Part shown: positions 5,664 to 23,020 of the stretch, in pieces
Numbering within the stretch: the first letter of the stretch is position 1
Layout of the letters: each line of letters starts with the position of its first letter
Virus record (IMG/VR): IMGVR_UViG_3300013126_000015
Location: 22,818 to 86,817 of that record
Source of the DNA: a virus
Taxonomy: Duplodnaviria; Heunggongvirae; Uroviricota; Caudoviricetes
Reading direction: 5' to 3' (one strand)
Length of the DNA: 64,000 bases
Position numbers and translations under genes: made by a program
Notes under the pieces: generated by a model
Told to the model about the DNA's origin: nothing
Databases searched by the model: none
The model's input: the letters and a program-made list of their open reading frames with translations, nothing else

Positions 5664-6332
5664 TTAAAGGCTAGACCAGCTCGATCTTAAAAAAATAATA
5701 TGATTGTATAATGGATGATTAACTGATTCAGGTAATAACTTATCTGATTTTAATATATTATCTAATTTCCATAATGGTCTTAAATTAGAATAATGATTTA
5801 ATAATAGCAATTCATCATAATTATTGGCAAAAGATAATGGCACTATATGATCTATATCCCATAAGTTTCTATTATCCCATGTCATATTATATAAAAACAA
5901 TGATTCGATATGAAGTTTAAACGTATTATAGTCACACCCTAATATATTAGTGGTTAATGATAATTTAGTATAACCTGAACGCTTAATAGCTTTTTTAATC
6001 ATTCCTCTAATACTGGATTTTAATTTTAATAATGTTTCATCCTTTTTCTGTGTTGGTTTTTTATATTTAATACTGATACATTGTTTGCACCATGATTTAT
6101 ATCCTGTCTTAGTTGAGTTATCAGGATGAAAATCCTCAACAGAACGTACCACGTTGCATTTTGAGCATTGTTTGTGTGATATGGCATCATGTATAAGGGA
6201 TTGTCTAAAATCTTTGTCATACGCTTTACAGCATGCCTTACATGATGATTTATACCCGTCTTTAGTTTCTTTGCTTCGATAGTAGTCTGATAATGATTTA
6301 TCAATCAAACATTTTTTACATTGCTTTATCAT
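5664..6332 (-). CDS. HNH homing endonuclease (Mob-like) with two N-terminal CxxC...CxxC zinc-finger modules
   Basis: DIDHIVP HNH motif; GGAG SD; opposite orientation within early + strand cluster. Confidence 0.7.
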   Translation of the reverse strand: MIKQCKKCLIDKSLSDYYRSKETKDGYKSSCKACCKAYDKDFRQSLIHDAISHKQCSKCNVVRSVEDFHPDNSTKTGYKSWCKQCISIKYKKPTQKKDETLLKLKSSIRGMIKKAIKRSGYTKLSLTTNILGCDYNTFKLHIESLFLYNMTWDNRNLWDIDHIVPLSFANNYDELLLLNHYSNLRPLWKLDNILKSDKLLPESVNHPLYNHIIFLRSSWSSL

Positions 6333-7527: not shown

Positions 7528-7704
7528 ATGACCACTCAATATAATACAATGTCAGATGATGAACTGGACACCATGGGCAATGGTAATGATAATCATATCA
7601 TTGACCTTGGGGATGATGATGACGATAATGATTACTATTCAGATGATAGTGATAGTGACATTGTATTCGCGAATGATTACTTCGAATGTGATAACGATTT
7701 CTAA
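7528..7704 (+). CDS. small highly acidic protein (58 aa, D-rich)
   Basis: unlisted ORF; followed by hairpin terminator. Confidence 0.35.
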   Translation: MTTQYNTMSDDELDTMGNGNDNHIIDLGDDDDDNDYYSDDSDSDIVFANDYFECDNDF

Positions 7705-7749: not shown

Positions 7750-8030
7750 ATTATAAAATAATTTTAGATGCTTGGTATTATACTTGCATAAAATTATTTT
7801 TTTATTTTTTGAGAGCTTGGTGTATTATATTTAAAATAATACTTGCAAATTTTCAAACTACTTGCAAATTTTTCAAATAATTCTTTCCAAAAATAAATTC
7901 CAAAAATAAATTCTAAAATAACCCCCAAAATAAAACTTACCCCTGCCAGAAATGTCCTATACCAGAAAAATACCCCCCACCCTCAAAAATTGTCGAAGTA
8001 TATTTTTTGTATACATGCGGAAATTTAGTT
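7750..8030. repeat. non-coding AT-rich region with direct repeats (GCTTGGT..TATTATA x2; TACTTGCA(A/T)A x3; CCAAAAATAAATT x2) and C-rich G-poor tract
   Basis: read directly; lies between convergent genes. Confidence 0.6.
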
Positions 8031-8414
8031 TTATGTAAATGCCACTTTAAATATATTTTCAGCTAGTATAGATTTGATTATTTGATTAAAATTTTGTTCA
8101 GAGAAAGTAAAATCAAAGGTACGATTATTAAATGTTGCGTTTATTCTAGGATGATTATTAATAAAATAAATTTGCCAGCGAATATAAAATGAATATCTTT
8201 TTCCCATACTAGATGGATTAGAATAGAACTCATAGTTATGACTAATGCTACCATGTTCTGCATTGCAGGCAAATAGTACTAAATTATTACTTGATAATAA
8301 ATTATTCATATTGGCTAGTAATTCATCCATTTTATTATCGATTAGTAATTGAATGTTGGTAGAGTCTTTATTGGCTTTAGAAATTAAATATTCATTCATT
8401 GAGTTGGTTAGCAT
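8031..8414 (-). CDS. hypothetical protein (127 aa)
   Basis: ATG ORF; extended -10 TGCTATAAT at 8450-8458 upstream. Confidence 0.45.
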   Translation of the reverse strand: MLTNSMNEYLISKANKDSTNIQLLIDNKMDELLANMNNLLSSNNLVLFACNAEHGSISHNYEFYSNPSSMGKRYSFYIRWQIYFINNHPRINATFNNRTFDFTFSEQNFNQIIKSILAENIFKVAFT

Positions 8415-8449
8415 ATTGAATTACTCCGTTTTGTTTAAGGTATGATGTT

Positions 8450-8458
8450 ATTATAGCA
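8450..8458 (-). promoter_or_regulatory. extended -10 element TGCTATAAT for gene 8031..8414
   Basis: read directly on minus strand. Confidence 0.4.
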
Positions 8459-8574
8459 AGGTATCAGTCTAATGACAAGTAGTAAAATCATCCTGGAAAA
8501 TAGAAAAGGTAAAAAAGTATAAGTACCCGATAAAAAAATTATCGAGCTATATTTTTTGTATACATACGGAAAAT

Positions 8575-9159
8575 TTATTTATAGGTAAACAAACTACTGA
8601 AATAATTATCTTCTTTTTGTGGTGTTGAGAATGAGTAATCATACTCTAATCCATCTGCACAAACGATATTAATAAATTTAGTAGTATTTGATTTTAATTT
8701 GAACATTGCGATCAACCCTTTTTTGGAACGATGTGATCTTGAAAGTTCCATGATACCAAAATCTTTATTGCCGCTTTTTTTATAGATAATGATATCATCA
8801 TCATTAACCATATATAATCGTTTAATGGTTTCGATACAGTTATCGAACATTAGGTCAACGCCATAAATGGTTGATAGTGCGGTTTCATAATCTATCCCAT
8901 TTTCCATTTTCTTTATTAATATTTCAGATAGGAATTGACCATCACCGCATGTTGGATCGAGGAATGTTTTTTTAGGATTGGTGAATAGTTCAAGAGGTAA
9001 TTGATTTAGCATTTCTTGAACTAATTTAGTAGGGGTAAAAACTTCACCGGTAGATTTTATTCTAGTTTTTTCACGTTCGACACCTGACATATAATCACGA
9101 TTTCTAGCATGGTCTATGATATTGTTTAACATTGTCTTATCCATGTTTATTGAGTTCAT
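8575..9159 (-). CDS. N6-adenine methyltransferase-like protein, short paralog (motif X FTP + motif I DPTCGDGQFL, no NPPY)
   Basis: SAM-binding motif I; N-terminus paralogous to 9196..10377. Confidence 0.5.
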   Translation of the reverse strand: MNSINMDKTMLNNIIDHARNRDYMSGVEREKTRIKSTGEVFTPTKLVQEMLNQLPLELFTNPKKTFLDPTCGDGQFLSEILIKKMENGIDYETALSTIYGVDLMFDNCIETIKRLYMVNDDDIIIYKKSGNKDFGIMELSRSHRSKKGLIAMFKLKSNTTKFINIVCADGLEYDYSFSTPQKEDNYFSSLFTYK

Positions 9160-9165
9160 GATTAA

Positions 9166-9194
9166 AGTATATCAGGTATTTTATTGATTGTCAA
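9166..9194 (-). promoter_or_regulatory. sigma70-type promoter (minus strand TTGACA 9194-9189, TATACT 9171-9166)
   Basis: 17-nt spacer. Confidence 0.5.
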
Positions 9195-9195
9195 T

Positions 9196-10377
9196 TTATT
9201 TTACAGTTGATTCGATATAATCAATTTCTTTTTGTGTTAAGTTAAAGTGTTGGTAAAGTTCTTCATCAGTCCATGATTTTGTTAAATCAATATCAGGAAT
9301 TTGTTCAAATAATGATTTTGAGTTCGGGGTATTTGTTTTAACCGATTTAATCAATGTTTTAATGGTATTGGTTTCCAGATATTGTTTTAAATTTATAGAT
9401 TCAATTTCAGATGATGTTGTTAAGAACACTACAGAATACCCACCAACATGATTAACATCGGCAACCTTAACGGCACCAATATTATTAAATGCCCCCATGT
9501 TTGGCAACACCACTTTAAATAATCCCTTTCCAGTTATTTCATTACCAACTGTAATAATACTAGTATTATATTTTTCACCTTGTTTACCAACTCCTGTTAT
9601 AAAAACATCCCCAGTTGTTTGTTCATTAACTTTATTAAGGTTTAATTTGCCGCGCAACCATCTAGTACCTAAATTTTTTGTGGTGTCAAATTTTGTAATA
9701 AATTTAGTTTGAGTATTATTTTCAGATAATATCATTGAATCTGTTAAATTAAATAGTTCTGTGTTGTGGTTAATATCGGTGACCTTGCAATCATCATTGT
9801 CATTTTTTGTCAACAAAAAATGACAAGTTCTCATATTTACGTTGAACCACTTATCACCATGAAAGACTAAATTATTTAATTTAGCGTCATATAAAAATTT
9901 TTTCAATTTTGAAGGTGATGGTCCAGTCCATGCAGATGGTATGACCAATGAAACGATGTTATTAGATAGTTCTACTGATTTATATACAAATTCTGCGGCT
10001 AAATCAATGCTATTAGTTGAATTTCCTTCTTTTCCTTGATAAGGTGGGTTACCTAATACGACATCGAATTTCATGTTAATATCTCCTAAATCTTTAATTA
10101 CGTTCAACCCAATTTTATGAGCGACTACATCTTTAGCAAGGTTGTCTACATATATATGTATTCTGCTTGCTGGTATATTATAATTATACACCAAACTAAT
10201 GGCAAATTCAAGATTAAATAACACTAAAATTGAATTTTTATTTGGAAGGGATGGGATTTGCTCAATCATTTCATTGACTAATTCCAATGGTGTAAAGATT
10301 TCATGAGAACCGGCAAACATGCCTGCTTCTAATTGGATCTTATAACCACGAAACATATCTTCAACTCTAGTGCTCAT
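9196..10377 (-). CDS. gamma-class N6-adenine DNA methyltransferase-like (DVVLGNPPYQ motif IV, FTP motif X)
   Basis: NPPY catalytic motif; motif I degenerate (no glycines). Confidence 0.6.
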   Translation of the reverse strand: MSTRVEDMFRGYKIQLEAGMFAGSHEIFTPLELVNEMIEQIPSLPNKNSILVLFNLEFAISLVYNYNIPASRIHIYVDNLAKDVVAHKIGLNVIKDLGDINMKFDVVLGNPPYQGKEGNSTNSIDLAAEFVYKSVELSNNIVSLVIPSAWTGPSPSKLKKFLYDAKLNNLVFHGDKWFNVNMRTCHFLLTKNDNDDCKVTDINHNTELFNLTDSMILSENNTQTKFITKFDTTKNLGTRWLRGKLNLNKVNEQTTGDVFITGVGKQGEKYNTSIITVGNEITGKGLFKVVLPNMGAFNNIGAVKVADVNHVGGYSVVFLTTSSEIESINLKQYLETNTIKTLIKSVKTNTPNSKSLFEQIPDIDLTKSWTDEELYQHFNLTQKEIDYIESTVK

Positions 10378-10406
10378 ATTGTTCTCCTTATTTAAAGTAT
10401 AATTAA

Positions 10407-10435
10407 ATTATACCTCAATTATAGTAGATTGGCAA
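10407..10435 (-). promoter_or_regulatory. sigma70-type promoter (TTGCCA 10435-10430, TATAAT 10412-10407)
   Basis: 17-nt spacer, AAGGAG SD before ATG 10377. Confidence 0.5.
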
Positions 10436-10992
10436 GTTAATTCTTTTAAAAATAATTCCCAAAATGGTATATTCATATCCACTAGCTGTGCTAGTTGAGC
10501 ATATCCCAATACTTGTATTTTATTATGATACATATCATTTAATATATCTTGACGTAATTCTAATGCTGTGGTAAACAAAGTCATATTTACTGGTTGCATA
10601 TAATACATACACATTGACTTTGCGACAAAGTTACTGATATGATCTTCGTTGGCTGTCAATTGATACTTAACATCATTTCGGAATTTTATTTGCACAGTAT
10701 GATTGGTACTGTCGTGGCTTTTGCCAACACCATCAACCCCCATATCAGGACCATCAACTAAAGAATCCCATGGACAGTAATCGATGATATTGATACGTTT
10801 ATCGATTGGACTGCAGTTGATCAATACTTCAACCAATGCTTCAAATCCATCACCACGATATGTTTCTGGTTCCCACATATCTGGTTGTTGTAAACTTTGG
10901 GTTGTTATACGTTTCATGAAAGTACTTAATTTTGTACAACCATTTAACAATGCAACAGGATCATAACAGGTATTTTTGAATCTATGTTTCAT
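10408..10992 (-). CDS. Mrr-like restriction endonuclease domain protein (FEALV...GVDGVG...VQIK)
   Basis: Mrr_cat-like PD-(D/E)xK pattern. Confidence 0.4.
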   Translation of the reverse strand: MKHRFKNTCYDPVALLNGCTKLSTFMKRITTQSLQQPDMWEPETYRGDGFEALVEVLINCSPIDKRINIIDYCPWDSLVDGPDMGVDGVGKSHDSTNHTVQIKFRNDVKYQLTANEDHISNFVAKSMCMYYMQPVNMTLFTTALELRQDILNDMYHNKIQVLGYAQLAQLVDMNIPFWELFLKELTCQSTIIEV

Positions 10993-11016
10993 TATTATCT
11001 CCTAAAGTATAATTTT

Positions 11017-11044
11017 ATTATACCAGATAATTAAAACATGTCAA
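11017..11044 (-). promoter_or_regulatory. sigma70-type promoter (TTGACA 11044-11039, TATAAT 11022-11017)
   Basis: 16-nt spacer. Confidence 0.5.
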
Positions 11045-12566
11045 GAAAATTATCAAACGATGGTGTTATTGGATTTGTTGGTTCTGGTGCAATTTCATCG
11101 AATAGTGACAGAAACATATTAAATGCTTGAGTTTTTTTATGTGATGATAATTGTGCCATATCGTCAAAGAAATCATTTGTTTCAATTTCATGAAATATAT
11201 CTTGCAACCACCATAAACTTCTATTATCAGTATCGGTATGATATGCATCTTCGATTTGGTTTTGATCTTTGGCATGTAAAGATTTCCAATTGGTTTCTTT
11301 TACATTTTCGATATTGATAGGATACCCAGCTTTACGAATAGCATGTACATATTCCCGAACAATTTCACGACCATCAGTATCACCGTTGACAACTGATACT
11401 GATATCCATGCTTGTTTTTTCTTTGATGGGTCTGGTTTATATACCCGAACAGCTCTACCAATTGTTTGTATCATCTTAGCTAATCCCATATTACGTAGGA
11501 TGCAAACACCGGTAATACCATCAACGTCGATTCCTTCACTCAAAATATCATAGTGAAAGATTAAACAGTTACGACCATCAATTTTAATTTGATTCAAGAA
11601 ATCAGTTCTTGATCTGCATTGTACTCCATTGATACATTCTCCATGTTTACTAGTCACCGTACATATATCATGGTCAGGTAATATATCATGGATTTTATCA
11701 ATATTATCCATTACAGTTTTTACATCATTAGTACCATTCAATGCAAATAATATTTTGCTAAAACCTAATTCTGGCGCAGTTAATTTATGTTGTTCTGATG
11801 CGAGTGCTATTACTTTACTGACGATGGTTTGTTGTTCAACATCATCCCGTTCTTTACCTCGAACATCAGTAGTGTTCGGAATATCACTATACATGATATG
11901 TAATCTCGGAGCAACTATTATTCCACGGTCGATCAATACTGCCGGTTCAATCTCGTATATCCGTTCACCATAAACATTGGTATTATTAAGACCCCTACCG
12001 GTTTCACTTGCTGTAAATTTTTCAGTTGCAGTAAAGAATAATTTAACTCTACCATTCAATTCCACAATACTTTTGTGGAATTCTTCAGCTACACAATATT
12101 GACTTTCATCTGCAATGATAGTATCAAAATCAATACCTTTTAATTTATAACTGCTATGGTACGTGCTAAAGATAACCAAATCTTTACCCATGCGACTAGC
12201 ACGGGCAATTTCATCAATGACTACTTGTTCGCTAGTTGTTGATTTTTCACTCCATTTAACCTTAGTGTAATCTGGTTCATGTTTACCACTATGGAAAGCT
12301 AATCCAAGATATTCTCGTGATGTAATAAAACCACGAATATCTTTAGCTAATTGATTACTTAACATGATTCTAGGCGATATTACTAAAGTAACGCCATGTT
12401 TGCGATTTTTATTCATCTGATGTTCAATAATCATTGCTTCTATCAATGTTTTGCCACCACCAGTAGGGATAACGATGCGTCCAGTTGTTAATCCATGATT
12501 GCGCTTAATCGAAGATACCGTTGCATTGTATGCTTCTTGTTGATGCTGTCTAGGTATGATTTTCAT
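11031..12566 (-). CDS. SF2 DNA helicase, ResIII/restriction Res-subunit-like (PTGGGKT, DESQ, TAT, QTIGRAVR motifs)
   Basis: helicase motifs I, II, III, VI read from translation. Confidence 0.7.
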   Translation of the reverse strand: MKIIPRQHQQEAYNATVSSIKRNHGLTTGRIVIPTGGGKTLIEAMIIEHQMNKNRKHGVTLVISPRIMLSNQLAKDIRGFITSREYLGLAFHSGKHEPDYTKVKWSEKSTTSEQVVIDEIARASRMGKDLVIFSTYHSSYKLKGIDFDTIIADESQYCVAEEFHKSIVELNGRVKLFFTATEKFTASETGRGLNNTNVYGERIYEIEPAVLIDRGIIVAPRLHIMYSDIPNTTDVRGKERDDVEQQTIVSKVIALASEQHKLTAPELGFSKILFALNGTNDVKTVMDNIDKIHDILPDHDICTVTSKHGECINGVQCRSRTDFLNQIKIDGRNCLIFHYDILSEGIDVDGITGVCILRNMGLAKMIQTIGRAVRVYKPDPSKKKQAWISVSVVNGDTDGREIVREYVHAIRKAGYPINIENVKETNWKSLHAKDQNQIEDAYHTDTDNRSLWWLQDIFHEIETNDFFDDMAQLSSHKKTQAFNMFLSLFDEIAPEPTNPITPSFDNFLDMF

Positions 12567-12606
12567 ACTTGCTCCAATGGATTTATAGTATTTAAGATAT
12601 AATTAT

Positions 12607-12635
12607 AATATACCAAAACTTCATAACCATGTCAA
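12607..12635 (-). promoter_or_regulatory. sigma70-type promoter (TTGACA 12635-12630, TATATT 12612-12607)
   Basis: 17-nt spacer. Confidence 0.55.
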
Positions 12636-12718: not shown

Positions 12719-13102
12719 TTATATAGGGGAAAAATTTTTAACTAATTTATTTGGATAGAAAGAAACGATATCTGCAGTATATATTGGAATATTATTTATG
12801 GTGAAGGTAGGTTGAGTATAAGGGTTATAGTAAATGATATTGTTGGAATTAATATTGATGAAAGAGAACAGGTAACCTTGAACACCTGCATGGACATTTT
12901 TTTTATTTTCTTTGATTACTCTTTGTCTACCTTTTTCGGATACTTTGAAAGTACAATTGGAAAGGGTTAGGTTTTGAGTATGGGCGATTACTTTATTTTT
13001 ATGTTTTATAGACCAGCAAGATTTGTGTATATTCCAGTATACGAATACTTTGGTACCATATAGAGAAGGAGGGATAGTATTATAGAAAGGGATGTTATTC
13101 AT
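12719..13102 (-). CDS. hypothetical protein (127 aa)
   Basis: ORF; ATGA overlap with next gene. Confidence 0.4.
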   Translation of the reverse strand: MNNIPFYNTIPPSLYGTKVFVYWNIHKSCWSIKHKNKVIAHTQNLTLSNCTFKVSEKGRQRVIKENKKNVHAGVQGYLFSFININSNNIIYYNPYTQPTFTINNIPIYTADIVSFYPNKLVKNFSPI

Positions 13103-13305
13103 AATGTTAAAAGGAACATGGTGATATGGTGTTCATCGCCTTCTAATACTCCCCAATATCCACTATCATGTTGAGTTTTGCATTCTGAATAAGACAGGTG
13201 GTATTGTTGCTGGATAATATTGTTCCACTCATGCAATCGTCGTTTACTATGACCTAACTTTTTCAATAATATATTCCATTGGTCTGATGATAGGTAATAT
13301 TTCAT
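13099..13305 (-). CDS. tandem paralog family I small protein (MKYYLS...EGDEHHITMFLLTL)
   Basis: conserved N- and C-terminal motifs shared with neighbours. Confidence 0.55.
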   Translation of the reverse strand: MKYYLSSDQWNILLKKLGHSKRRLHEWNNIIQQQYHLSYSECKTQHDSGYWGVLEGDEHHITMFLLTL

Positions 13306-13535
13306 AATTGTAGTAGGAACATAGTGATATGGTGTTCATCACCTTCTATTATGCTATAGTATCCTGAATCTGATTCATGATATGATAGTTTTGTGTGATA
13401 ATAATTAGAGTTCCAGTATTTTAATCTATCCTGGTATGATAGAGCTTGATAATATGCAGAATCCTGATCCCATTTATCAAGATCGGTGTTATCCCATAAT
13501 TTATTATATTGTTCATTAGACAGGTAATATTTCAT
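13302..13535 (-). CDS. tandem paralog family I small protein
   Basis: MKYYLSNEQYNKLW...EGDEHHITMFLLQL. Confidence 0.55.
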   Translation of the reverse strand: MKYYLSNEQYNKLWDNTDLDKWDQDSAYYQALSYQDRLKYWNSNYYHTKLSYHESDSGYYSIIEGDEHHITMFLLQL

Positions 13536-13550
13536 AAAAATATTTATTGA

Positions 13551-14096
13551 TTATGCAGTAGTCAAGTTATGTTTATGAATCCAGAATTGTAGTTTATCTA
13601 ATTCTATGTCATTGATCCAAAATTCTTCATATTCAATATTGCCATTATCGAAATATCTGGTTACTGCAGGGCCATTATCGTTATGTCTGTTGCCATTGAT
13701 CCAAAATCCTTCTTCAATGATATTGCCATTTTCGGAATAATAGATTGATGCAGGTCCATTCTCATTGTGTGTTTTGCCATTAATGGAATATCGTTCATAC
13801 CTGATATTACCATTTGGATGAAATTCAACAATTGCAGGACCATATTCGTTATGGTATCTACCGAGTATGAGGTATTGTTTAGATTCAATATTACCATTCT
13901 CCCAATAAGAAATATATGCAGGCTCGTTGATATTATGTCGTTGGCCATTCTCCCAATATTCTGTTGATGCTATAGTACCATTATCGTAATAAGTAATGAT
14001 TGGATTCGGCATAATATTGTGATTTATTTTATTAAGTGTAGATATATTATACCATGATATTGAGTGGATGTCAAGTGATAGATCATAATTCTGCAA
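13551..14096 (-). CDS. MORN-repeat protein (>=6 repeats YxENGxxxxxxYWxNG)
   Basis: repeat pattern in translation. Confidence 0.55.
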   Translation of the reverse strand: MQNYDLSLDIHSISWYNISTLNKINHNIMPNPIITYYDNGTIASTEYWENGQRHNINEPAYISYWENGNIESKQYLILGRYHNEYGPAIVEFHPNGNIRYERYSINGKTHNENGPASIYYSENGNIIEEGFWINGNRHNDNGPAVTRYFDNGNIEYEEFWINDIELDKLQFWIHKHNLTTA

Positions 14097-14361
14097 GGAT
14101 AAAGATTGTTATATGATTTTCATCACCAATTAATCTACCCCAGAATCCTGGATAGTCAGTAAGTTTGATAGATGGTGGGTGATCTTCTGATTCTATATAA
14201 TCTATGTTAAATTGATTTCTAAAAGTTTTTTTCCAATAATCATTTCTTTGTTTGACGGTAAGGACTTCATCATATTTTGGTTGATCACTATACTGATTCC
14301 ACCAGATTAAGTTCCATTGTTTGCGAGTTAGATCATATTTCATAATTGTAATAAGAACCAA
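14083..14361 (-). CDS. tandem paralog family I small protein
   Basis: ...GFWGRLIGDENHITIFILAEL. Confidence 0.5.
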   Translation of the reverse strand: MVLITIMKYDLTRKQWNLIWWNQYSDQPKYDEVLTVKQRNDYWKKTFRNQFNIDYIESEDHPPSIKLTDYPGFWGRLIGDENHITIFILAEL

Positions 14362-14567
14362 ATAATTTGTTTTTCTTCACCTTCTAACCATCCCCAGAAT
14401 CCTGGTTCTGATGGTGAATATGATAAGATTTCATCATATGATAAGTTAGTTGATGATTCCATATTATCTAACCAGTATCCAATTCGTCTTTCTATTTGTG
14501 TTATATCATATAGTCCTTTATCCCACCATATGCGTTTAAATTCATTTTCAGATAGGTAATATTTCAT
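14340..14567 (-). CDS. tandem paralog family I small protein
   Basis: MKYYLSENEFKRIW...EGEEKQIIWFLLQL. Confidence 0.55.
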   Translation of the reverse strand: MKYYLSENEFKRIWWDKGLYDITQIERRIGYWLDNMESSTNLSYDEILSYSPSEPGFWGWLEGEEKQIIWFLLQL

Positions 14568-14806
14568 AGTTGTAATAGAAGTATATTAATATATTTTTCA
14601 TCACCGTTGATAATAGCAACATGATCATTACATGAAGTATTGTATGTTTCCATATATGTAATATTTGGATATGTTTCATCCCAAAGTATATATCTACTCA
14701 TTTTACATTTGTATTCACCATCTAGTGGTTCAGTGATCCATTGAGATGGTTCAAATAGACAATACCATATAGTATTCCATTGATTATATGTAATATAATG
14801 AATCAT
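14564..14806 (-). CDS. tandem paralog family I small protein
   Basis: ...NGDEKYINILLLQL. Confidence 0.5.
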   Translation of the reverse strand: MIHYITYNQWNTIWYCLFEPSQWITEPLDGEYKCKMSRYILWDETYPNITYMETYNTSCNDHVAIINGDEKYINILLLQL

Positions 14807-22325: not shown

Positions 22326-23020
22326 TATTTTTCAAACCTTGTGGTAATTGGGTCAATTAATACTGCTTGCCCATTTTTTCTTCTCATGATATTATTAAAG
22401 TGCATATCAGGTTCAAATTGATTATTTCTGAATAATGGCTCTAATATTCTTAATGCTTGGGAAAATTGTTTATTTGTAGTTGAATGTCGAATTTTATTTC
22501 TGGTATTATCATCAAAAAATGCTTTCGAAAATTTAACATGGGCTGGGAATTTTCCACTAGGATCAGTCGAGTTGACAATATCCATTATTCCTAGATTATT
22601 ACACAATAATTCTACACCATTATTTGGATAGTCAAATAATCGTTCCATTACAATTAATAATTGATATTTTGCCTTTGATTGTTCTGGTTCCAAAAAGAAA
22701 TCATGTTGTTGTTCAAACCATTCCATATCATCATATGAAAATTTACTTATATCATATAATTTGAATTTAAGGATTTTTGGAAAGAATTGGTTTTCTGGAT
22801 GATTATGGCATACTCTTAAAAATTGATATGCTGGATCTGATGGACCACTTATTGCAACAAATTTAAGGATGATATTCGGGTTATTTTGAACAGCATATGC
22901 TATAGCTTGAATTCCATTTCCAAGATATGATAATTGTGGTTTATTAATTACACCAGATAATGGTTTTTTTGATGTGGGTATTTCTATTTTCTTTTCTAAG
23001 ATGAGTTCATGAATTTTCAT
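22325..23020 (-). CDS. kinase-like paralog with CTS-like N-terminus (MKIHELILE); degenerate catalytic motif
   Basis: C-terminus ...NGQAVLIDP paralogous to 23024 gene. Confidence 0.4.
   Translation of the reverse strand: MKIHELILEKKIEIPTSKKPLSGVINKPQLSYLGNGIQAIAYAVQNNPNIILKFVAISGPSDPAYQFLRVCHNHPENQFFPKILKFKLYDISKFSYDDMEWFEQQHDFFLEPEQSKAKYQLLIVMERLFDYPNNGVELLCNNLGIMDIVNSTDPSGKFPAHVKFSKAFFDDNTRNKIRHSTTNKQFSQALRILEPLFRNNQFEPDMHFNNIMRRKNGQAVLIDPITTRFEK

Follow-up and report, generated by a model that had tools for sequence, protein, structure and literature searches.

Can a lytic phage carry a restriction-modification (R-M) machine of its own, and how would the parts of such a machine be shared among genes? 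The question is raised by four adjacent minus-strand genes in a stretch of 64,000 nucleotides (the whole of which is called the window below) from a virus of the Caudoviricetes, corresponding to positions 22,818 to 86,817 of the IMG/VR record IMGVR_UViG_3300013126_000015. These genes encode a helicase-like ATPase, an Mrr-like nuclease and two methylase-like proteins, and the reading that we favour, and hold to be probable, is that together they form an R-M-like, methylation-guided nuclease-motor, i.e. a split, phage-specific relative of the Type ISP enzymes made of four subunits. Type ISP enzymes carry nuclease, helicase, methylase and target recognition domain (TRD) on one chain (PMC2790903, PMC4666363); one of them, LlaGI, translocates from an asymmetric site with the energy of ATP, cleaves on head-to-head collision and methylates a single strand (PMC2790903).

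The window is AT-rich (about 32% G+C), and the cassette genes match it in G+C. Its DnaB-like helicase is 45-50% identical to the homologs of the jumbo phages PA5oct and Atu_ph07 and, since NAMPT and a clamp-loader-like ATPase are also encoded, an uncultured jumbo phage appears to be the source. The contig was also present in a metagenome of the Joint Genome Institute (102 kb) and in a Logan assembly (75.6 kb). The DNA of the cassette region had zero matches among 50,697 phage records, and the phage therefore has no close cultured relative there.

The preliminary description of this region listed five genes spaced 30-40 bp apart. Five minus-strand open reading frames (ORFs) are indeed present, the four below and one of 127 aa at 8031-8414, and the close spacing holds for the four only, whose intergenic gaps, in the order helicase, nuclease, large and small methylase gene, are 38, 30 and 36 bp.

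11031..12566, minus strand: superfamily 2 (SF2, ResIII-type) helicase-like ATPase of 511 aa, the putative motor subunit
10408..10992, minus strand: Mrr_cat_2-type PD-(D/E)xK nuclease subunit of 194 aa, assigned by family profiles and by the fold of its AlphaFold2 (AF2) model
9196..10377, minus strand: 'large' methylase subunit of 393 aa, with an Eco57I/CamA/TaqI-like fold, NPPY and a TRD
8575..9159, minus strand: 'small' half-methylase subunit of 194 aa (counted from the first ATG), with motifs X, I, II and III

The 127-aa gene lies 160 bp beyond the small methylase gene, past a terminator-like hairpin. It had no match in Pfam, PADLOC or NCBIfam and only marginal ones among the PHROG families, and it is not present in the related cassettes whose gene tables were inspected. 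As it is absent from those cassettes and homology is uninformative, it was left out of the unit; the gap, the hairpin and its lack of conservation alongside the other four genes rule it out as a cassette member, and the predicted functional unit is the four genes, with the 127-aa gene outside it.

The nuclease, the motor and their linkage to the methylase genes

The window nuclease itself has no Pfam match at E < 0.1, and 16 of the 27 aligned members of its family match Mrr_cat_2 (PF13156; best E-value 4.2e-07). Among PHROG families, the nuclease matches phrog_7683 (4.5e-27). The pattern FEALV, GVDGVG and VQIK, on which an Mrr-like nuclease had initially been proposed, is present in the window protein, and residues E51, E55, D83, D87, Q101 and K103 do not vary across 33 sequences. 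Its AF2 model (predicted local distance difference test score, pLDDT, 90.6) retrieved exclusively PD-(D/E)xK nucleases with Foldseek, among them EcoO109I, Card1, MspJI and the nuclease domain of LlaBIII (prob 1.0), and the initial assignment is supported by both the family profiles and the fold. The profile of the Mrr family did not match LlaGI among PDB sequences, so that the link between the nuclease and Type ISP rests on the Pfam scans of its homologs and on the fold search.

Classical Mrr and MspJI are modification-dependent (PMC2938202). The presence of MspJI among the structural matches would suit a Type IV, Mrr-like nuclease-motor that attacks modified host or rival DNA, the methylase pair having a separate role or making the mark itself; this we regard as very improbable, as the Pfam family matched is Mrr_cat_2, the nearest architecture is that of Type ISP, in which the Mrr domain cuts without specificity of its own and is directed by methylase and TRD, and profile scans of the four proteins revealed no domain that reads modified bases (such as SRA or YTH).

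A pattern-based scan of one genome per species, covering 185,579 bacterial and archaeal species, returned a single match to the close Mrr-like family, on a phage-like contig binned with a metagenome-assembled genome of Fischerella. By this pattern scan the family appears to be essentially phage-only, and the cassette therefore appears phage-specific. R-M is usually regarded as a means by which bacteria defend themselves against phages, whereas here an ATP-dependent machine of R-M type would be conserved in strictly lytic phages, and its near-absence from cellular genomes points to a viral use of restriction, either for the recycling of host DNA or for the exclusion of competitors.

The helicase matches ResIII (1.9e-16) and DEAD (2.2e-10) in Pfam, and phrog_16 (1.8e-40). 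The motifs HQ, PTGGGKT, DExx, TAT and QTIGRxxR are invariant across 9 homologs, and those previously read in the window copy (PTGGGKT, DESQ, TAT and QTIGRAVR) are all present. Searches of PDB with single sequences gave nothing useful for the helicase and for the large methylase subunit, and only M.BseCI at 0.0015 for the small one, so that family profiles were required. With its family profile, the helicase had LlaGI (5ffj, 2e-14) and LlaBIII (4xqk, 3.2e-13) as top PDB matches, ahead of XPB/Rad25, UvsW and UvrB. The preliminary description had named a grouping with UvsW-type repair families as evidence that would speak against an R-M role; by profile, over the first RecA domain (RecA1) only, LlaGI and LlaBIII rank ahead of UvsW. 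The window helicase has a C-terminal extension (residues ~390-511) that is missing in the stand-alone cyanophage homologs.

A shorter homolog of this helicase (~410 aa, with DEAH, not DESQ; 'T4-like GC 36' in the S-SM1 record) occurs in 419 cyanophage records. In S-SM1 and P-RSM1 (L011 and L012), where it stands alone, there is no Mrr-like gene directly upstream and no annotated methylase nearby; the genes that do lie upstream were tried as Mrr-like and are not. The neighbours 079 and 077 in P-SSM5, considered as Mrr-like and methylase-like candidates, had no match by hhalign, the local hidden Markov models (HMMs) giving a weak match of 079 in the motif-IV region. The cyanophages ACG-2014f, S-CAM7 and Bellamy each hold both a short helicase copy and the cassette copy.

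At least 13 distinct phage loci contain the genes for helicase, Mrr-like nuclease, large and small methylase subunits together, in at least four gene orders. The order of the window (helicase-Mrr-large-small) recurs in L003, in an ENA contig of 313 kb, and in L006, L009/L010, L019-L023, L027, L030 and L082. The cyanophages have other orders, namely small-Mrr-large-helicase in ACG-2014f, Mrr-large-helicase-small in S-CAM7 and helicase-large-Mrr-small in Bellamy, and L099 also has the four genes in an order unlike that of the window. A linkage that survives such reshuffling indicates a functional connection among the four genes, whose catalytic signatures are conserved in all four proteins, apparently under purifying selection. 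Cultured phages that carry genes of this set are ACG-2014f, S-CAM7, Bellamy and Aeh1.

An exhaustive profile search with the nuclease family further uncovered single-chain relatives of several kinds. Mrr-like and helicase domains are fused in proteins of 716-752 aa (P0265, P0299, P0316); in P0331 and P0333 (about 1250 aa) a complete N6_Mtase/Eco57I methylase is added, and in P0344 and P0370 (958-1002 aa) a methylase with the same degenerate motif I as the large subunit of the cassette (see below). According to Pfam, the Mrr-like domain is N-terminal to the helicase in 10 of 10 fused relatives checked, and the methylase, where present, comes after. P0370 aligns with the N-terminal part of the large subunit, including the degenerate motif, its helicase part shares 41% identity with that of the window over 447 aa, and a small-subunit gene comes next. 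The R-M-like parts list initially drawn up for this locus, i.e. helicase, Mrr-type nuclease and adenine methylase, is therefore strengthened by both synteny and fusions.

The same data bear on an anti-restriction role, also considered in the preliminary description, in which a helicase-driven, processive adenine methylase would shield phage DNA and the Mrr-like protein would be an accessory. A methylase and a helicase domain are joined in DarB of phage P1, and the cassette helicase has a weak match to a long helicase PHROG (phrog_62, 6.4e-05), which is the sole link of the cassette to DarB; early host-type promoters would fit such a role, and orphan methylases are common in phages. DarB itself, however, is a single virion protein of very large size and has no restriction nuclease, unlike the small, separate proteins of the cassette with their conserved nuclease. 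No DarB-specific profile or structural match was obtained for the cassette proteins. The E, D and QxK residues of the nuclease are invariant, the nuclease domain is retained in the fused forms, and methylation alone needs no conserved PD-(D/E)xK active site. An activity of the DarB kind is accordingly improbable, and we found no specific support for it.

A methylase probably divided between two genes

The 393-aa large subunit matches Eco57I in Pfam (1e-12), and its family profile matches CamA (1.6e-11). Its AF2 model (pLDDT 92.3) has a complete Rossmann fold and a TRD, and the top Foldseek matches, CamA and M.TaqI, superpose over the full length with a template modelling (TM) score of about 0.6. 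The motifs follow the gamma order, with FTP, NPPY at residues 110-113, a TRD at ~160-320 and a conserved C-terminal helix (WTDEELYQHFNLTQKEIDYIE); NPPY and this helix ('WTDEELY..LT.EEI..IE') are common to the large subunit and to bacterial Eco57I-family methylases of ~505 aa. The description of this protein as a gamma-class N6-adenine methyltransferase thus stands as regards FTP, NPPY and the Eco57I match, but its canonical motif I has been replaced. A conserved ILVLFNxEF is found in its place, canonical motif I being absent in 14/14 cassette homologs, and the acidic residues of motifs II and III are not conserved, whereas NPP[YF] is retained in 13 of the 14. Cassette-linked large subunits form a subfamily of their own, in which LVLFNxEF replaces motif I. 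The least conserved stretch of the protein is 161-300, which corresponds to the TRD, and low conservation would be expected where specificity is determined; the degenerate N-terminal half shows more conservation than this stretch, and it is therefore not simply decaying.

The small subunit brings what the large one lacks. It matches Pfam N6_Mtase (4.6e-05) over profile positions 21-85 only, i.e. the N-terminal part, as well as phrog_4376 (2.1e-22), and it contains motif X (EVFTP), motif I (DPTCGDGQF, within DPTCGDGQFL), motif II (IYGVDL) and motif III (NIVCADGLEYDY), ending at a degenerate motif IV (SFSTP). Canonical motif I is present in 16/16 of the small homologs examined and NPPY in 0/16. 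The protein had been seen as a second, paralogous methyltransferase on the basis of FTP and DPTCGDGQFL; both motifs are there, and what they belong to is a half-methylase, complementary to the large subunit rather than redundant with it. Motif IV and motif I within one domain, the gamma-class criterion, are found neither in the large nor in the small subunit alone. The two genes would thus make up a complementary, non-redundant pair, NPPY and TRD on one side and the motifs for S-adenosylmethionine (SAM) on the other, and from its distribution this pair appears to be a widespread phage two-gene module.

The small-subunit family comprises 2607 clusters, and it is present on 495 IMG/VR contigs. 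We sampled 79 IMG/VR loci and searched their 6-kb flanks with local HMMs. A large methylase-like gene was found within 6 kb of the small gene in 76 of these loci, mostly adjoining it, and a helicase and/or Mrr gene is added in about 8-11 of the 79.

Three features of these loci suggest how the two proteins divide their work. Firstly, at least nine loci have a large gene (245-300 aa) whose product begins with motif IV (MKFDVVVGNPPY...), the small gene following or overlapping it; such a large protein has no beta1-beta3, and it therefore cannot bind SAM alone. Secondly, gp090 of Aeromonas phage Aeh1 (Aeh1p090; L015:3149-4396), whose record labels it hypothetical, with similarity to a 'type III restriction system endonuclease', unites in a single chain an NPPY at residue 9, a TRD, the C-terminal helix and then motifs X-I-II-III, and is a fused, circularly permuted, beta-class-like form of the pair. 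Thirdly, L036, L048, L094 and L101 carry 3-5 tandem large paralogs with different TRDs and a single small gene, an arrangement that suggests a multi-specificity methylase with a shared cofactor-binding subunit. Because large genes can start at motif IV, because the Aeh1 fusion is permuted and because arrays share one small gene, the small protein is most likely a shared SAM-binding half supplied in trans. A single case also fits this split model: the large subunit of the L028 cassette has NTPY, the NPPY being lost, and no small gene was found with it. A strict rule by which the small gene would occur only with a degenerate large motif I was also considered and is broken by L008 and L036, the latter having four canonical large paralogs and a small gene.

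Natural division of a catalytic methylase domain over two polypeptides has a parallel in the C5-cytosine methylases M.AquI and M.EcoHK31I (PMC2836561, PMC3404938), from which the cassette pair differs in being of the N6-adenine type, in the apparent sharing of one small subunit by several large ones and in its coupling to a nuclease-motor in a subset of cases. With the gamma-class enzymes CamA, M.TaqI, M.BseCI and Eco57I, the large subunit has in common its full-length superposition, NPPY and the C-terminal helix; it differs from them in having no (D/E)PxxGxG SAM loop and in being accompanied by a separate X-I-II-III half-protein. The forms seen across phages make up a series: a large subunit with a canonical N-terminal half plus small, one with a degenerate N-terminal half plus small, one without N-terminal half plus small, and the fused, permuted Aeh1p090. 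A duplication-truncation route to circularly permuted methylases was reportedly proposed by Jeltsch in 1999 and by Peisajovich et al. in 2006, and by analogy our series looks like such a route. Its circular-permutation intermediates are relevant to protein evolution and to the engineering of split, targetable methylases. We found no description of the cassette or of a split adenine methylase in the literature searched, and the pair, with its 495 IMG/VR contigs, would be a natural split N6-adenine methylase with a shared cofactor subunit, a kind likewise not found there. This shared-subunit split methylase is the more novel component of the locus.

A second lineage repeats the association in about 11 loci (L035, L042, L055, L068, L074, L076, L080, L087, L091, L097 and L108; also L008), where proteins of 1140-1290 aa are followed by the small gene. 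Pfam scans of three of them (L035, L068, L097) found an Eco57I-type methylase, together with a weak ResIII match in L068 and a weak T5orf172 match in L097. L008 is the unfused version, its T5orf172-helicase part being a separate gene of 696 aa; this T5orf172+ResIII protein was tried as a homolog of the window helicase, and the BLASTP similarity was not significant.

Proposed mechanism and relation to known systems

If the cassette is a split Type ISP relative, the large subunit would supply the NPPY catalytic half, a TRD that reads the sequence and a conserved N-terminal half without SAM motif, and the small subunit the SAM-binding half with motifs X and I-III. The two would associate, identify a short asymmetric site and transfer a methyl group to the adenine in it, which would mark phage DNA as self. 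Where the site is unmethylated, the complex would recruit or activate the helicase; this would translocate on double-stranded DNA with ATP, and the Mrr nuclease would cut at a distance, e.g. on collision of motors. The C-terminal extension of the helicase (~390-511) and the degenerate N-terminal half of the large subunit are candidates, by position only, for the coupling element. The targets of the machine would be unmethylated host DNA or rival phages in the same cell, and it would probably act early, because host-type promoters precede the genes in a lytic jumbo phage. Both roles raised in the preliminary description, offensive nuclease and defence against competing phages, would be compatible with such a machine, and the sequence by itself does not separate them. 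The full proposal, i.e. a split, circularly permutable N6-adenine methylase joined to an offensive, early, Type ISP-like nuclease of four subunits that is directed against unmethylated host or rival DNA in a subset of lytic phages, is advanced tentatively and with considerable doubt.

Several observations weigh against the Type ISP-like reading or against parts of it. The alignment between the helicase and LlaGI is restricted to RecA1, and the large methylase is nearest to CamA/TaqI/Eco57I, not to the methylase domain of LlaGI, so that the similarity to Type ISP rests on nuclease, motor and architecture. In the AF2 monomer, the N-terminal half of the large subunit is already in place and completes the Rossmann sheet by itself, and the geometry of a heteromer is therefore open to question. 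In L008, a large subunit with canonical motif I is still adjoined by a small gene, so that complementation of a defect is not the whole story. A nuclease expressed early from the same type of promoter as the methylase would be safe only if incoming phage DNA is premodified. Finally, the large and small genes occur without a helicase or Mrr match in 65 of the 79 IMG/VR loci and helicase homologs stand alone in most cyanomyoviruses, from which it follows that both halves can work independently.

These last two observations are also grounds for regarding the cassette as two independent neighbours, an orphan split adenine methylase for self-protection or regulation and a helicase-nuclease for replication, recombination, repair or sequence-independent degradation of host DNA, with no methylation-sensitive targeting. 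The helicase family occurs by itself as a core cyanomyovirus gene, its profile also matches the repair helicases XPB/Rad25, UvrB and UvsW after LlaGI/LlaBIII, and each gene has a separate promoter. We nonetheless consider such an arrangement unlikely, given that Mrr, helicase and methylase are fused in one chain in P0331, P0333, P0344 and P0370, that the four genes stay linked through at least four gene orders, that cassette large subunits form their own LVLFNxEF subfamily, and that the second lineage fuses another nuclease-like domain (weak T5orf172) and a weak ResIII-type region to a similar methylase, followed by the small gene.

Returning to the split Type ISP-like machine, the cassette contains the same parts as the Type ISP enzymes, namely an Mrr-family nuclease, an SF2 ATPase, an N6-adenine methylase and a TRD. 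The fused relatives of the window proteins are ordered nuclease-helicase-methylase, LlaGI and LlaBIII are the top structures for the helicase profile, and LlaBIII is matched by the nuclease model. On the other hand, the window has four polypeptides with their own start codons, in the gene order helicase-nuclease-methylase, and thus lacks the single chain that characterises Type ISP; its SAM motif is found in a separate half-methylase, the large subunit being without canonical motif I; and the cassette is found in lytic phages rather than on bacterial plasmids or chromosomes. The cassette may thus be viewed as a disassembled Type ISP system which, with fused and unfused forms side by side, lends itself naturally to the study of the coupling among motor, nuclease and methylase.

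The preliminary description had compared the cassette with Type III or Type I systems, a comparison superseded by the fused domain order and the helicase profile, which place Type ISP (LlaGI/LlaBIII) closest. Type I systems are likewise built from several subunits, the HsdR chain too begins with a PD-(D/E)xK nuclease and continues with an SF2 motor, and there are weak NCBIfam and PADLOC matches to Type I R subunits. However, no HsdS-like gene was found in or beside the cassette, where the TRD lies inside the large methylase subunit, nuclease and motor are separate genes, and the methylase belongs to another type than HsdM. Type III systems also combine a ResIII-type helicase with a PD-(D/E)xK nuclease and, when large and small subunits are read jointly, their motifs follow the beta-class order IV..TRD-X-I-III, which is typical of Mod in the Malone-Blumenthal-Cheng classes. 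The nuclease of Res, though, is C-terminal to the helicase, in contrast to its N-terminal position in the fused relatives of the cassette, and no match to a Mod profile was obtained.

Viruses are known to carry a nuclease together with its cognate methylase, as phage P1 (EcoP1I) and chloroviruses do, and the chlorovirus enzymes are believed to break down the DNA of the host, that of the virus being methylated. These systems differ from the cassette in that P1 has a Type III system in a temperate phage and chloroviruses have Type II enzymes, whereas the cassette would be an ATP-dependent, Type ISP-like system of four subunits, and it occurs in lytic jumbo phages and T4-like cyanophages.

Promoters, terminator and neighbouring genes

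A consensus promoter upstream of each gene had been reported for this region. Each of the five genes, including the 127-aa one, does have a sigma-70-like site just upstream and on the correct strand that agrees with the consensus at 11 or more of 12 positions, and a full match of 12/12 was found for the nuclease gene only. The sites of the four cassette genes and the terminator-like element are:

12607..12635, minus strand: promoter of the helicase gene, TTGACA-17-TATATT with TG extension, 11/12, the -10 hexamer ending 40 nt before the ATG
11017..11044, minus strand: promoter of the nuclease gene, TTGACA-16-TATAAT with TG, 12/12, overlapping the last helicase codons
10407..10435, minus strand: promoter of the large methylase gene, TTGCCA-17-TATAAT, 11/12, overlapping the end of the nuclease gene
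9166..9194, minus strand: promoter of the small methylase gene, TTGACA-17-TATACT with TG, 11/12
8525..8572, minus strand: terminator-like element at the end of the four-gene unit, composed of a 25-nt repeat (8548-8572) and, after it, a hairpin with a T-run (8525-8547)

Such promoters are a property of the window as a whole. There are 35 sites of at least 11/12, compared with 7.9 +/- 2.7 in shuffled sequences, so that one promoter per gene reflects the design of an early region and is no peculiarity of the cassette. Most of the sites lie 24-41 nt before an ATG. They span window positions 1-57400, on the plus strand left of ~7500 and on the minus strand right of ~8000, a distribution that indicates, at the level of sequence, an early region of divergent layout in which each gene has about one promoter of host type.

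Ribosome-binding sites precede the helicase (GGAG), nuclease (AGGAG) and large methylase (AGGAG) genes. The small gene has no Shine-Dalgarno sequence, and its -10 hexamer ends 6 nt before the first ATG, which implies either a leaderless mRNA or a downstream start at M6 or M10. The gene call of the Joint Genome Institute (JGI; P0389) uses M6, giving 189 aa, and the homologs align from about M10.

The 25-nt repeat in the terminator-like element (TTTCCGYATGTATACAAAAAATATA) has two copies only in the window, at 7999-8023 and 8548-8572 on the minus strand, with 0 expected by chance. Both copies of TTTCCGYATGTATACAAAAAATATA lie directly after a stop codon, with a hairpin next. Together, repeat and hairpin resemble a terminator, or a signal for RNA processing, common to both places.

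The gene immediately upstream of the cassette (12719-13102, minus strand) encodes 127 aa, and its product belongs to the Phage_L5_gp82 family of Pfam (3e-33; phrog_586). Next to it, 13099-14806 of the same strand holds an expanded family of five tandem small paralogous ORFs (68-92 aa) with a near-identical C-terminus, '...GDE(H/K)HIT(M/I)FLL(Q/T)L'. A 181-aa ORF of MORN-like repeats ('YWENGN...', 'G..HN..GPA') is found at 13551-14096 (minus strand). In another cassette locus, the four genes are directly followed by sugar-nucleotide genes (L003:10332-13069), encoding an RmlD/epimerase, a CTP_transf_like protein, a PfkB kinase and a second epimerase, a set that by its families resembles that for ADP-heptose synthesis. 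On the other side of the window cassette, a 58-aa ORF at 7528-7704 (plus strand) is extremely rich in Asp, and a 222-aa Cys-rich protein encoded at 5664-6332 (minus strand) combines repeated CxxC...YK(S)xCKxC units with an HNH-like 'DIDHIVPLS'.

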